Translations under genes and position numbers: made by a program
Shown: positions 33,824 through 45,859 of the stretch, in pieces
How positions within the stretch are numbered: the first letter of the stretch is position 1
Layout of the letters: each line of letters starts with the position of its first letter
Assembly: GCA_963850905.1 (NCBI GenBank)
Contig: CAWKMU010000003.1
Span: forward strand, 1,715,156-1,779,155
Source of the DNA: an uncultured Gemmatimonadales bacterium
Lineage (GTDB): Bacteria > Gemmatimonadota > Gemmatimonadetes > Gemmatimonadales > Gemmatimonadaceae
Direction: 5' to 3'
Length of the DNA stretch: 64,000 nucleotides
The notes under the pieces: model-generated
What the model saw: only the letters and a program-made list of their open reading frames with translations
The model's database searches: none
Told to the model about the DNA's origin: nothing

Positions 33824-35791
33824 ATGGCTGACGGCGCGCCCCTCTCGCTCCCTGACCGGCTCGATTCAGTACCGCCCCGTCCGCTAGCGGGGACCGCGGT
33901 GCTGCCCCCGGGTCGCCGACTGCAACAGGCGATGCTGGATCCGCGCCGGATCATTCGTTGGGTCTACGTCGGGCGCTTCTCTGTAGCGACGGCCATCTTC
34001 CTCGCCGCGCAACTGGTGTGGGCCAGCGCGCCCTCCACCGACACCCGGATTGCGTCGCTCATCTTCGCGGTGACAATGGTCGTGACCGTCATCTCGGCAG
34101 CATACACCGAGGTGTACGGTGCGCCACCCCGTCGAACCTTTCTCTACGGTCAGACCGTCTACGACCTCCTGCTCGTCACCGCGGTCGTGCACGTCACTGG
34201 CGGTGGTGCGTCGCAGTTCACGCTGTTCTACATCCTCGTCATTGCGACGGCCGCGCTCCTGCTGCCGATGGGCGGCGGGCTACTCATCGCGCTCCTGGGG
34301 ATCGTGTGTTACTTCGCCGAGGTCTTGTGGTTGAGTGACACCGCTCCCGATCTCGGCGTGTGGTTGCAACTGCTGGTGTTCGCGATGGTTGCGCTCGCCT
34401 GTGGCTACATCAGCGCGCGACTGCAGGAAGCCGAGGAAGGGACCGCCGCTGAGTTGGTATTCGTTCGACTCCAGGCCGAAGACATTCTCCGGAACATTCG
34501 CAGCGGCATCGTCACGATCGACGAAAACGGGGTGCTCCTGTACGCCAATCCGGCCGCGAGCGCTCTGCTCGGCATCCCCTTCTCCGATCTCATCGGGACG
34601 CCGATCCTGAATCGGGTGTTTGAAGTCGCACCCATCGTCGCCCGTGCGCTCCAGCGGGCCGTCACGGACCGACTACGCACGACACGGGCAGAGGACGTCG
34701 TGCAGTTCGGCGACCACGCGTTCCCGATCGGCGTCACGACCACGTTCGCTGATGGCGACACCGGCGGCCACGGTCGTACGGCTACCGCCATCTTCCAGGA
34801 CATCGCAGGCCAGAAGCGCCTGGAGAGTCTGCATCTCCGGGCGGGCCGCCTGGAAGCGATCGCGGAGCTCGGCGCCTCGCTCGCCCACGAGATCAAGAAC
34901 CCCCTCGCGTCGATTCGCAGCGCCGTCGAGCAACTCACGCGCATGATCGAGCCGACCACCGGTCCGCTCGCGGGGCGCGGCCGCGAGACGGGTGACGCGC
35001 CGGCCCGTGGCCGGTCGGCGGGCCTGAACCGCACACGCGGGATGGGTGTCGGGAGACACCAGTCATCGCTGTCGCGCCGACGTCGGGTGAGCGCTTCCGT
35101 CGCGGCGCGCGATCCAAAGGAGGAGGCGGCCGCATCGACGGGCGCCGACGACGACACGCGCACGCTTGGAGCGCTGATTGTACGCGAAACGGACCGGCTG
35201 TCGCGTCTGCTCAGCGAGTTCCTCGACTTCGCGCGTGTGCGCGTCACCCGGACGTCACCGGTCAACGTGTCGGCGCTGGCCCGCGGCGCGGCGAGCCTGG
35301 TCGCGGCCCATCCCAATGTCAAACAGGGCCTGCGGGTGAACTGTGTCACACCGGAGGGCCCAGTCGTCATCGACGGCGATGAGGACCTTCTTCACCGAGC
35401 AGTTTTCAATCTCGCGCTCAATGCGGTGCAGGCCGCGCCGCAGGGCGGAGAAGTGTGCATCGAAGTGCAGACCTTGACAGTGGATCAGGTACCGATGGGC
35501 GTCAACGACGCGGCGTTCGAGGCGGGCGCGATCGCTCTTCGCGTGTCCGATGACGGGCCGGGCATTCCCCTGGAGATTCGTGATCGGCTGTTCGAGCCAT
35601 TTGCCACCACGAAGCCGGGCGGGACCGGTCTGGGGTTGTCGGTCGTCTATCGCGCCATCGAAGCGCATCGCGGGTTGGTGCTGGTCGACTCCGGTGGCGA
35701 CTTCACGGGGACGCGCATCACTGTCCTGATCCCGCTCCGCCGGCCAGACGACACGACCGCGACGGCAGGCAGCGCGGAGGCCGCCGCATGA
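33824..35791 (+). CDS. pilS: Membrane sensor histidine kinase, PilS-like
   Basis: About 6 N-terminal TM helices, a PAS-like segment, H-box LAHEIKNPLASI, N-box FNLALNAVQA, G1 VSDDGPGIP and G2 GGTGLGLSVV. It overlaps the downstream NtrC-type regulator by 4 nt and lies in a pilus locus. The PilS identity is by context. Confidence 0.7.
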   Translation: MADGAPLSLPDRLDSVPPRPLAGTAVLPPGRRLQQAMLDPRRIIRWVYVGRFSVATAIFLAAQLVWASAPSTDTRIASLIFAVTMVVTVISAAYTEVYGAPPRRTFLYGQTVYDLLLVTAVVHVTGGGASQFTLFYILVIATAALLLPMGGGLLIALLGIVCYFAEVLWLSDTAPDLGVWLQLLVFAMVALACGYISARLQEAEEGTAAELVFVRLQAEDILRNIRSGIVTIDENGVLLYANPAASALLGIPFSDLIGTPILNRVFEVAPIVARALQRAVTDRLRTTRAEDVVQFGDHAFPIGVTTTFADGDTGGHGRTATAIFQDIAGQKRLESLHLRAGRLEAIAELGASLAHEIKNPLASIRSAVEQLTRMIEPTTGPLAGRGRETGDAPARGRSAGLNRTRGMGVGRHQSSLSRRRRVSASVAARDPKEEAAASTGADDDTRTLGALIVRETDRLSRLLSEFLDFARVRVTRTSPVNVSALARGAASLVAAHPNVKQGLRVNCVTPEGPVVIDGDEDLLHRAVFNLALNAVQAAPQGGEVCIEVQTLTVDQVPMGVNDAAFEAGAIALRVSDDGPGIPLEIRDRLFEPFATTKPGGTGLGLSVVYRAIEAHRGLVLVDSGGDFTGTRITVLIPLRRPDDTTATAGSAEAAA

Positions 35792-37161
35792 GCGCCAACG
35801 GCCAGCCGACCGTGCTTGTCATCGACGACGAGATGGGCATTCTCGAGTCGCTCCGGATCCTCCTCAAGAACGAGGGATTCAGTCCCACGATCGCCAACGG
35901 TGGGAAGCAGGGGCTCGAGCAGATCGAAGAGCTTCGGCCGGATATCATCTTGAGTGATGTCCGGATGCCTTCGGTGAGCGGCGTGCAGGTCCTGAGCGCC
36001 GCGCGAGCGCAAGATCCCGACGTGCCGGTCATCCTCATGACGGCGCAAGCGACCCTGCAGTCGGCAATGCAGGCGGTCAACGAAGGGGCGTTCTACTACA
36101 TCCAAAAGCCGTTCCGCAACGATGAGATGCTCGCCATTCTCCGACGGGCAGCCGAGCATCGAAAACTGCGTGTCGAGAACCGGTCCCTGCGACAGGAGAT
36201 CACTCGACGGGAACGGACATCGTCCAATCGGCCTGTCGGGAGCAGCAAGTCCTGGCTCGACATCGTCCAGCTCGCGGAGACGGTTGCGCCGACCGAGTCC
36301 ACCATCCTGATCCAGGGCGAGTCGGGCACCGGGAAAGAGGTCATTGCGAGGTACATCCACCAGTTGTCGCTGCGCACGGATGGTCCGTTTCTCTCCATCA
36401 ACTGCGGCGCGCTCCCTGAGAGCCTGCTCGAGTCCGAGCTCTTCGGCCACGTGAAGGGCTCGTTCACCGGCGCGGTCAGGGACAAGAGCGGATTGTTCAC
36501 CGCGGCGGCGGGCGGCACGTTCTTCCTGGACGAAATCGGCGAGACCACACCGGCGACCCAGGTGAAGCTGCTGCGCGTCCTCCAACACCGTGAGGTCATT
36601 CCGGTCGGGGCGACAGAAGCCATCCCGATCGACACGCGCCTCGTCGCGGCGACGAATCGTGATCTCGAGGAAGAGATCAAACGGGGCGCGTTCCGCAGCG
36701 ACCTGTTCTATCGACTCAACGTCATCGCGCTGCACCTGCCGCCGCTGCGCGAGCGACGCGATGACATCCCGCTGCTCGTCGATTTGTTCCTGCACCGGGC
36801 GTCGGAAGCTCGGGGCGAGCCGGCGAAGCAGGTCAGCACAGCGGCGCTCGATGTGCTACAGGGCTTCAACTGGCCAGGCAACGTGCGAGAGCTCGAGAAT
36901 GCCCTCGAGCGCGCGGTGATTCTGACCGCTGGCCCGATCATCGATGTCAACGTGCTACCGGAACGGATCACGGAGCGGCGCGCCGAGCCACTCGTCTCGG
37001 AGCGCATGCGGACGAATCCGACGCTCGAGGCAATCGAGCGGGCGTACATTCTGTGGGTTCTCCAGAGCGAGGGCGGGAACAAGACCCGGGCGGCCGACGT
37101 GCTGGGTATCGACCCATCGACGCTGTATCGGAAACTGTCGCGGTTTGGGGTCGAGGCGTGA
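35788..37161 (+). CDS. pilR: Sigma-54-dependent response regulator, PilR-like (NtrC family)
   Basis: Receiver domain (PDIILSDVRMP), AAA+ sigma54-activator motifs GESGTGKEVIARYIH, GAFRSDLFYRLNV and ESELFGH, and a C-terminal Fis-type HTH (NKTRAADVLGIDPSTLYRKL). Confidence 0.85.
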   Translation: MSANGQPTVLVIDDEMGILESLRILLKNEGFSPTIANGGKQGLEQIEELRPDIILSDVRMPSVSGVQVLSAARAQDPDVPVILMTAQATLQSAMQAVNEGAFYYIQKPFRNDEMLAILRRAAEHRKLRVENRSLRQEITRRERTSSNRPVGSSKSWLDIVQLAETVAPTESTILIQGESGTGKEVIARYIHQLSLRTDGPFLSINCGALPESLLESELFGHVKGSFTGAVRDKSGLFTAAAGGTFFLDEIGETTPATQVKLLRVLQHREVIPVGATEAIPIDTRLVAATNRDLEEEIKRGAFRSDLFYRLNVIALHLPPLRERRDDIPLLVDLFLHRASEARGEPAKQVSTAALDVLQGFNWPGNVRELENALERAVILTAGPIIDVNVLPERITERRAEPLVSERMRTNPTLEAIERAYILWVLQSEGGNKTRAADVLGIDPSTLYRKLSRFGVEA

Positions 37162-45195: not shown

Positions 45196-45469
45196 CAAGA
45201 CGCAGCCTCCCCGACCTCGAAAGCAGTCTCAAGACGCTGTTTTGTCAGGCCTGGTGGCTACAGGATCGACAGGCAGCTTGCAAGCGGCCGTGCATTATGC
45301 CCCAGCCAGGGGTGTTCGAACGGGCCCCTGTTAAGACGCTAAGTCGATTAGGGATAACGGCTTAATCTCGGGATCCAAAGCGGGCCCGACGGTTGCCCCT
45401 AAGGGGGACATGTCGACCTAGACCGCCGGCGACCTCTGGTTGCCGACCAATCTCACTCTGGAGCAAGCA

Positions 45470-45859
45470 ATGACGCAGAACCGGAAGGGCTTTACGCTGA
45501 TCGAGTTGTTGATCGTGGTCGTCATCATCGGCATTTTGGCGGCGATCGCGATTCCGAAGTTCGCCAACACGAAGCAACAGGCCTACCTGGCGACCCTCAA
45601 GTCGGACCTGCGCAACTTGGTCACGGCCGAGGAGGCGTACTTCGCGGACAACACCACCTACACGACGTCGTTGGCGACCACGCAGTTCGACGCGTCGCAG
45701 GGTGTGACGTACAACGTGTCGAACGCGAGCGGGACAGGCTGGGAAGCGACCGCGACGCACGTCGGGTTGGTCGGTGCCACGCCGTCGGGGTGCCACATTG
45801 CAATCGGCACGTACGCGACGACTGCAAGCGAGGACGAAGGCGCGCCGTACTGCCCGTAA
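45470..45859 (+). CDS. pilA: Type IVa major pilin
   Basis: Class III signal MTQNRKG followed by FTLIELLIVVVIIGILAAIAIPKF (Phe+1, Glu+5). GGAG lies about 10 nt upstream of the ATG at 45470. The C-terminal Cys pair (SGCHIA...APYCP) fits a disulfide-bonded loop. Confidence 0.9.
   Translation: MTQNRKGFTLIELLIVVVIIGILAAIAIPKFANTKQQAYLATLKSDLRNLVTAEEAYFADNTTYTTSLATTQFDASQGVTYNVSNASGTGWEATATHVGLVGATPSGCHIAIGTYATTASEDEGAPYCP

Follow-up and report, generated by a model that had tools for sequence, protein, structure and literature searches.

A pilus-linked GT-C/GT2 gene block in Gemmatimonadota is a candidate TfpW-like periplasmic glycosylation module

A glycosyltransferase block between pilS-pilR and pilA

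This report concerns a block of glycosyltransferase genes that lies between the type IV pilus regulators pilS-pilR and the pilin gene pilA in an uncultured Gemmatimonadales bacterium (GenBank assembly GCA_963850905.1, contig CAWKMU010000003.1). We analyzed a 64-kb stretch of this contig (positions 1,715,156 to 1,779,155 of the forward strand; ∼66% G+C), hereafter the window, and all coordinates count from its first letter. According to the open reading frame (ORF) listing and Pfam scans, a single (+) strand carries pilS, pilR, a 546-aa GT-C protein, a soluble GT2, a stretch of genes that join a GT-C domain to tetratricopeptide repeats (GT-C+TPR), pilA, and pilMNOPQ.

The string opens with a pilS-type sensor kinase (33824–35791; Pfam 6TM_PilS, PAS, HisKA, and HATPase_c) and a pilR-type sigma-54-dependent response regulator (35788–37161; Response_reg, Sigma54_activat at 1.7e-67, and HTH_8). 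Next come the 546-aa protein (37158–38798), recognized as a GT-C-fold glycosyltransferase from its AlphaFold2 (AF2) model, Foldseek matches, and DD motif, and the 273-aa GT2, a candidate polyprenyl-phosphate-sugar synthase (38795–39616; Glycos_transf_2, E = 6.5e-32). Three GT-C+TPR paralogs follow: paralog 1 (39697–41427), paralog 2 (41476–43312), and paralog 3 (43309–45195), the last intact, 621–628 aa long, and TMTC/TfpW-like by its motifs, its AF2 model, and the Pfam matches of its family. The major type IV pilin PilA (45470–45859, 129 aa) has an N_methyl match in Pfam and a below-cutoff match to typeIV_PilA_Myxo in NCBIfam. The ORFs for pilM, pilN, pilO, pilP, and pilQ (46143–51559) close the string, and the relatives' copies of these genes carry PilM_2, PilN, PilO, AMIN, and Secretin domains.

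An earlier, sequence-only reading of this DNA had reported the ORFs for PilS, PilR, the GT2, the pilin, and pilMNOPQ; the ORF listing and Pfam place them exactly where it had put them. The 4-nt overlaps on which it based its view of co-expression (ATGA at 35788–35791, GTGA at 37158–37161, ATGA at 38795–38798, and GTGA at 43309–43312) are likewise all found in the sequence. Intergenic gaps of 80 and 275 nt remain within the block. The GTG starts used here for the 546-aa protein and for paralog 3 are choices, as public calls of identical proteins begin 20 and 7 codons later, respectively (P0121, 526 aa; P0001, 621 aa).

The GT-C+TPR family

The sequence-only reading had called the GT-C+TPR proteins TMTC-like and had proposed profile searches as a check. 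These searches support the assignment at the level of the family: among 49 members, PMT_2 was matched by 20, TMTC_DUF1736 by 17 (best E 1.7e-5), and TPR_19 by 35. Paralog 3 itself reached PMT_2 and TPR only below threshold and had no TMTC_DUF1736 match in the Pfam scan. The placement of its family as TMTC-like GT-C+TPR is thus supported by family-level and structural evidence.

The motifs agree with this placement in part. Eisenhaber and colleagues defined seven TMTC motifs for human TMTC1-4 (PMC7801869). The aspartates of M1 (DD), D46 and D47, are invariant across 48 sequences, and paralog 3 reads FTLDDEGVI here. M2 (SHKSYRP) corresponds to GQYRP at 79–83, with a conserved YRP core; M3 (RxD) to GRCD at 153–156, the family consensus being RxE/D; M4 (KE(T/Q)xxT) to SKE at 187–189, with an invariant KE; and M7 (ERxxY) to the invariant AERTLYLP at 369–376. 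Among M2, M3, M4, and M7, the match is confined to the YRP, KE, and ER..Y cores, all of which are invariant or nearly so. M5 (DW), which belongs to the DUF1736 loop, is only similar, being D/E-Y in the family and E303-Y304 in paralog 3, and M6 (PxxP) is absent, the ninth transmembrane (TM) helix of paralog 3 having P-V-S-N. The family consensus FAVHPVHVEAV resembles LLFAVHPIHT of TMTC3, and GQYRP, HPVHVE, and ERTLYLP are invariant in the family.

In the AF2 model of paralog 3 (pLDDT 87.5), residues 447–627 form a helical repeat at the C terminus, preceded by an odd number of TM helices (11), an approximate figure read from the AF2 helices and hydropathy. Matches of paralog 3 in PDB profile searches and Foldseek were TPR proteins, including the TPR domain of OGT. 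A profile of the membrane domain alone gave no match among PDB sequences, and tblastn of this domain against plasmids also gave none.

Database names of the homologs, "Tfp pilus assembly protein PilF" or "TadD," would instead make these proteins noncatalytic pilus assembly factors of the PilF/PilW/Tgl type, and the TPR part does match TIGR02521 type_IV_pilW weakly (1.1e-6, 28 bits vs. a cutoff of 154). However, the PilF and TadD names rest on the TPR part alone, whereas the 445-residue membrane domain keeps its DD, KE, and ER motifs, read as catalytic or donor-binding, invariant in 48 sequences down to 41% identity, and a donor synthase gene is co-located. We therefore regard a purely structural role as very improbable.

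The 546-aa GT-C protein and the soluble GT2

The 546-aa protein has no Pfam or NCBIfam match of its own, and only 2 of its 32 homologs match PMT_2. Its AF2 model (pLDDT 92, pTM 0.91) nevertheless predicts a GT-C fold. In Foldseek searches of the PDB, ArnT (5f15) was the best match overall (TM scores 0.52/0.52), with STT3/OST, AglB, ALG9, Pmt4, and AftA also found. The protein is ArnT/STT3-like, is without TPRs, and ends in a small periplasmic alpha/beta domain; D53 and D54, in the first periplasmic loop, are near-invariant in its family. An exhaustive profile search at E ≤ 1e-30 returned representatives of about 1,400 clusters, which makes this a sizeable but unnamed family. Aligned by hhalign, the GT-C+TPR and 546-aa families match weakly around the DD loop with a probability of 7.5%; thus, the two are not close paralogs.

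The best solved relatives of the GT2 are the Pyrococcus Dol-P-Man synthase (5mlz, 8.4e-16), ArnC (3e-9), and the GtrB homolog sll0501 (1.4e-8). Its top NCBIfam models, AglJ (116.6 bits vs. a cutoff of 325), haloarchaeal Dol-P-hexose transferase, and PpgS, all scored far below their equivalog cutoffs. No hydrophobic segment was found in its 273 residues, and it therefore lacks C-terminal membrane helices and resembles the soluble DPM1/Ppm1 type, which requires a membrane partner. The similarities support its candidacy as a polyprenyl-phosphate-sugar synthase. Overall, the enzyme families of the sequence-only reading hold for the GT-C protein, the Dpm1-like GT2, and the TMTC-like GT-C+TPR proteins.

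Frame breaks in paralogs 1 and 2

The sequence-only reading had counted three TMTC-like proteins between 39697 and 45195. The third gene is indeed a continuous ORF, but paralogs 1 and 2 are frame-broken, as shown by tblastn of paralog 3, three-frame translations, and a GC3 frame plot. Compared with single-ORF homologs of 621 and 655 aa, the reading frame of paralog 1 runs 1 → 0 → 1, with breaks at 40248–40302 and at about 41183–41188. Paralog 2 has one surplus base at 42396 (TT vs. T) relative to the intact 642-aa ortholog in a 93%-identical genome (L001).

Genes of other functions are broken in the same way. These include aroC (51726–52989, break at 52290), trmFO (57650–59272, break at about 58180), and a GT4 gene (28092–29355, break at 28949–29026), so that the 64 kb hold at least six frame breaks, housekeeping genes among them, or roughly one indel per 10 kb. 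The nearest relatives are long-read metagenome-assembled genomes (MAGs) with split pilS, pilR, pilQ, or aroC genes of their own. Because at least six breaks occur in 64 kb and aroC and trmFO are affected, assembly indel errors appear likelier than a biological cause. Programmed frameshifting in paralogs 1 and 2 was considered and rejected, since position 42396 lacks a slippery site and the unrelated aroC and trmFO are also broken.

Paralog 1 differs from its neighbors in further respects. It is an insertion relative to L001 (site 7854–7982), which has only two GT-C+TPR genes, and it is nearest to the paralog-2 type at about 40–49% identity, as expected of a diverged P2-type duplicate. It departs from the consensus at invariant sites, the E of the ER motif being replaced (LAPRVLFLP) and HPVHVEA reading HPVHADV. 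Being lineage-specific and having lost this glutamate, paralog 1 may be a genuine pseudogene.

Conservation across Gemmatimonadota

Homologs of paralog 3 and of the 546-aa protein are found almost exclusively in Gemmatimonadota. A genome scan yielded 79 distinct loci at 31–93% identity, all from this phylum (Gemmatimonadales, Longimicrobiales, and one Gemmatimonas MAG, L068, which has the block), and these loci were searched with the window proteins and a pilin motif. The sequence-only reading had asked whether the block stays with the pil genes in related genomes, and it does so across the phylum. Of 74 loci that could be evaluated for it, 53 have a pilin gene on the same strand no more than 1.5 kb downstream, and in a further group of loci the pilin follows a few kilobases on, behind the 546-aa GT-C and the GT2. 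For PilR, 66 loci were evaluable, and 54 of them encode it upstream. Of the 79 loci, 54 have the GT2 and 39 the 546-aa GT-C. One GT-C+TPR gene occurs in 30 loci, two in 35, and three in 14.

The set of components is kept while their order shifts, as in PilR-P3-GTC-GT2-PilA vs. PilR-GT2-GTC-P3-P3-PilA (P3, GT-C+TPR; GTC, 546-aa GT-C). Close relatives retain two distinct orthologous groups, P2-type then P3-type, and a relative at 45% identity has every block gene intact on a 5.1-Mb contig. Only seven or eight loci are without pil genes, and some of these are additional copies, their genomes having a pil-linked set as well. Judged from gene order, the case is strong that pilS-pilR-(GT-C)-(GT2)-GT-C/TPR (one to three copies)-pilA is a functional module tied to the pilin gene.

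One genome provides a separate observation. In MAG MFD10113.bin.3.65, a locus far from the main pil cluster (L004) has a second GT-C+TPR gene (L006, 9878–11839; 47% identical to paralog 3) and, 1.6 kb from it on the opposite strand, a second pilin gene (13467–13856) whose product is 78% identical to the window PilA. The link between the two genes is loose because a split thiC sits between them.

The pilin, its promoter, and PilP

The globular part of PilA is rich in Ser/Thr, and the protein has a C-terminal pair of Cys residues. The sequence-only reading had counted 20 Ser/Thr within its last 71 residues, and this number is exact. Pilins adjoining the block contain 21–42% Ser/Thr beyond residue 55, and several alignment columns hold S or T interchangeably, some of them being 100% S/T; at mature position 70, for example, 22 of 40 pilins have T and the other 18 have S.

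A candidate sigma-54 −24/−12 element, GGGCCCGACGGTTGCC (45382–45397, +), lies in the 275 nt that separate paralog 3 from pilA. About 50 of 62 related loci have a sigma-54-type element 70–100 nt ahead of the mature-pilin codon (e.g., L063 at 11769 and L047 at 9724), and a score of at least 8 of 11 consensus positions was reached in 82% of loci vs. 12% of control windows. The conservation of this element argues that pilA is its own PilR-dependent unit, predicted to be transcribed from its own PilR/sigma-54 promoter with GGGCCCGACGGTTGCC as the candidate. The glycosyltransferase genes, by comparison, are strung on pilS-pilR by overlapping or near-abutting codons, an arrangement that fits a steady level of the enzymes while pilin synthesis is regulated. 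Thus, where the sequence-only reading saw co-expression, the linkage of the glycosyltransferases to pilSR stands, but co-expression with the pilin is not implied, pilA having its own conserved promoter.

PilP (48666–49550, 294 aa) contains a mucin-like linker of roughly 140 aa rich in Ala, Pro, Thr, and Ser, which could be a target of PMT/TMTC-type O-glycosylation.

The enzymes might modify other periplasmic proteins of the pilus machine, or envelope proteins more broadly, instead of or besides the major pilin, in the manner of actinobacterial Pmt and mucin-like regions. The PilP linker is one such candidate acceptor, PMT and TMTC enzymes have multiple substrates (PMC7801869), the presence of one to three paralogs per locus suggests several acceptor specificities, and members of the family exist outside pil clusters. 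We nonetheless consider this explanation unlikely, though the best placed of the alternatives: pilA is the tightest and most frequent neighbor of the block, and TfpW, the one characterized enzyme of such architecture, modifies pilin.

Other features of the window

Upstream, pilB, pilT, and pilC (21992–26465) lie 7 kb from pilS, and the region between holds an unrelated GT4/DUF2334/LPG_synthase_TM/GT4 cluster, an ArfB-like gene, and a CorC gene. The cluster (28092–32365) sits just upstream of ArfB/CorC/pilS and may make a glycolipid or polysaccharide. A homolog of KirBac-type inward-rectifier K channels is encoded at 56704–57999 (−; IRK_C and Ion_trans_2), with the 5′ end of its ORF probably over-extended into trmFO. 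ARAGORN called an 89-nt tRNA-Gln(CTG) at 988–1076 (−) inside a B12-binding/radical-SAM ORF; it is probably a false positive, as Rfam sees no tRNA there, and the Rfam scan of the window gave no matches. Simple scans of the window for sigma-70 promoters and terminators returned numbers at or below shuffle expectation.

Discussion

The closest described counterpart of this block is TfpW of Pseudomonas aeruginosa Pa5196/PA7, a GT-C protein of 646 aa for which 11 TM helices are predicted, with DDX in periplasmic loop 1, YX6PFX7P in loop 4, and a large C-terminal periplasmic TPR domain (bioRxiv 10.1101/2020.04.19.049825). It is best modeled on ArnT and is needed for O-linked D-arabinofuranose oligomers on Ser/Thr residues of the pilin (bioRxiv 10.1101/2020.04.19.049825). 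Paralog 3 corresponds in every feature that can be compared with this description, with 621–628 aa, DD at 46–47 in the first periplasmic loop, about 11 TM helices, and TPRs at 447–627. It also carries Y-x6-P-F-x7-P in the loop that precedes the final TM helices (Y290-VRLMVA-P297-F298-ELRIEYS-P306); its family keeps Y290, P297, and P306 wholly or almost unchanged, but not F298. Both genes adjoin that of the major pilin, tfpW directly beside and downstream of pilA in Pseudomonas and paralog 3 at 275 nt upstream. TfpW uses a polyprenyl-phosphate-linked sugar donor, and the same type of donor is presumed for the block.

The sequence-only reading had taken the combination to be uncharacterized. This claim falls, as it overlooked that TfpW has the same GT-C+TPR architecture beside pilA; the TMTC-type architecture had looked unprecedented because TfpW was known there only as "a GT-C enzyme." The block differs from TfpW in other ways. 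Its enzymes are encoded upstream of pilA, within the pilS-pilR string, as one to three paralogs and with an extra ArnT-like GT-C; TfpX is missing; and the phylum is Gemmatimonadota, with a phylum-wide distribution. Its donor gene is a Dpm1/ArnC/GtrB-like GT2 and not the D-arabinofuranose pathway of DPPR synthase, DprE1, and DprE2. None of these three, nor a GtrA-like protein, was present among the scanned proteins of the 64-kb window, although they could lie elsewhere in the genome. Because the donor gene is of the Dpm1/ArnC/GtrB kind rather than of the D-arabinofuranose route, the sugar would probably be a hexose or N-acetylhexosamine. To our knowledge, only a few proteobacteria are known to have TfpW-type systems, all of them with D-arabinofuranose, and our literature search found no description of a pilus-linked GT-C/GT2 module in Gemmatimonadota. 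What is new is thus plausibly a matter of sugar supply, position, paralogs, and phylum within the TfpW/TMTC kind, and not a new kind of system.

It is useful to compare the block with other glycosylation systems. Eukaryotic TMTC1-4 likewise have TPRs on the noncytoplasmic side after an 11-TM GT-C domain, share the motifs DD, (S/G)xYRP, FAVHPxH, KE, and ERxxY with the block family, part of which matches PMT_2 and TMTC_DUF1736, and are supplied with donor by a Dpm1-like synthase. By contrast, the block proteins are bacterial and shorter (about five TPRs), the window protein falls below Pfam thresholds, and the family lacks the PxxP of M6 and has D/E-Y instead of D-W at M5. The acceptors of TMTC1-4 are cadherin domains; that of the block is presumably pilin. 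In actinobacteria, Ppm1/Pmt combines a soluble Ppm1-type synthase with a GT-C protein O-glycosyltransferase that acts on Ser/Thr-rich secreted proteins, a pairing of soluble synthase and GT-C enzyme seen also in the block. However, Pmt (GT39) has no TPRs and is not pilus-linked, and its sequence relation to the block is at the level of the PMT_2 clan only. PglL and TfpO (PilO) are also pilin O-glycosylation enzymes, TfpO being encoded beside pilA, but they belong to a Wzy_C/O-antigen ligase-like family that transfers glycan en bloc from undecaprenyl pyrophosphate, and no Wzy_C/O-antigen-ligase domain was matched by Pfam in any block protein.

The established logic of periplasmic glycosylation couples a polyprenyl-phosphate-sugar synthase to a GT-C enzyme (PMC11127046). 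The three-component systems GtrA/GtrB/GtrC and ArnC/ArnEF/ArnT follow it, with a GT2 polyprenyl-phosphate glycosyltransferase and a GT-C that acts outside the cytoplasm, as in the block, whose GT2 differs in lacking the C-terminal membrane helices of GtrB, ArnC, and DPMS. These systems act on a glycan or on lipid A, whereas the presumed acceptor of the block is a protein. One may therefore ask whether the block modifies an exopolysaccharide, lipopolysaccharide/lipid A, or a glycolipid, with its link to pilSR reflecting co-regulation with pili. That the 546-aa GT-C is overall nearest to ArnT, a lipid A modifier, that GT2 + GT-C three-component systems classically modify O-antigens, and that a GT4/DUF2334/LPG_synthase_TM cluster lies just upstream would all suit such an acceptor. 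However, TMTC and TfpW are GT-C enzymes whose TPR domains are said to bind proteins, the TMTC-type motifs belong to protein O-mannosyltransferases, and regulation alone hardly explains why the position directly upstream of pilA is conserved across orders. A nonprotein acceptor thus seems improbable to us.

We lean, with only somewhat better than even confidence, toward reading the block as a pilus-linked periplasmic glycosylation module that is TfpW-like, fed by a polyprenyl-phosphate-sugar synthase, and conserved in Gemmatimonadota. In such a pathway, the soluble GT2 would place a monosaccharide from a nucleotide sugar on polyprenyl phosphate at the cytoplasmic face, as its family suggests. 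The charged lipid might then be flipped by a component encoded outside the block or by the GT-C enzyme itself, which has been suggested as the flippase for its own donor in the case of TfpW. The GT-C+TPR enzymes, with a periplasm-facing DD/KE/ER site, would pass the sugar to Ser/Thr residues of the pilin in the inner membrane before its assembly, and their TPR domain, by analogy with TfpW and TMTC, would bind the protein acceptor. The ArnT-like 546-aa GT-C may extend the glycan or add a second sugar.

The elements of this reading differ in strength. The gene families, catalytic motifs, GT-C fold of the 546-aa protein, phylum-wide synteny, and promoter conservation have direct support, whereas pilin as acceptor, the O-linkage, and the identity of the sugar are what we infer. 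The earlier interpretation as pilin or pilus O-glycosylation accordingly survives in its enzyme families, and the pil linkage is stronger than it had claimed; three intact GT-C+TPR proteins do not survive as part of it.

Several observations weigh against the module as we read it. Two of the three GT-C+TPR genes are frame-broken in the window as sequenced. The likeness of paralog 3 to TfpW (AAM52060.1) comes from setting it beside the published description of that enzyme, and the Foldseek matches of the full-length GT-C+TPR model were so dominated by TPR proteins that they were uninformative on the membrane domain. Ser/Thr richness is common in pilins and is thus weak evidence for glycosylation. 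There is no GtrA/ArnEF-type flippase in the block, and its gaps of 80 and 275 nt could not accommodate a small membrane ORF; the closest flippase-like domain, LPG_synthase_TM at 30078–31028, belongs to a separate cluster. The GT2 is missing from some pil-linked loci (e.g., L013, L021, and L061), and GT-C+TPR members occur with no pil genes within 10 kb at L007, L009, L049, L050, L060, L067, and L079. Such members away from pil genes suggest that the family probably has other acceptors too. Finally, the members of this family are known here from sequence and models.

A more ambitious proposal is that Gemmatimonadota make O-linked pilin glycans phylum-wide through a bacterial TMTC-type, multienzyme, lipid-donor system housed in the pilS-pilR operon. 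We put this forward tentatively, as something we would sooner doubt than assert. A pathway with a Dpm1-like synthase, an ArnT-like GT-C, and two anciently diverged GT-C+TPR groups would, if true, be a bacterial counterpart of eukaryotic TMTC O-mannosylation and offer a tractable model of how TMTC enzymes recognize substrates through TPR domains.

The possible function of the block is relevant at several levels. For annotators, labels such as "PilF/TadD/TPR protein" on GT-C+TPR genes conceal glycosyltransferases. Pilin glycosylation alters pilus surface chemistry and, in Pseudomonas, guards against pilus-specific phages, according to one study (bioRxiv 10.1101/150227). If abundant soil bacteria do have a hexose-type version throughout the phylum, pilin glycosylation by GT-C+TPR enzymes would be ancient and widespread. 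Such a version would also connect TfpW with the TMTC enzymes behind human disease, and the choice of acceptors by TPR domains could be studied in simple pairs of bacterial enzyme and substrate.

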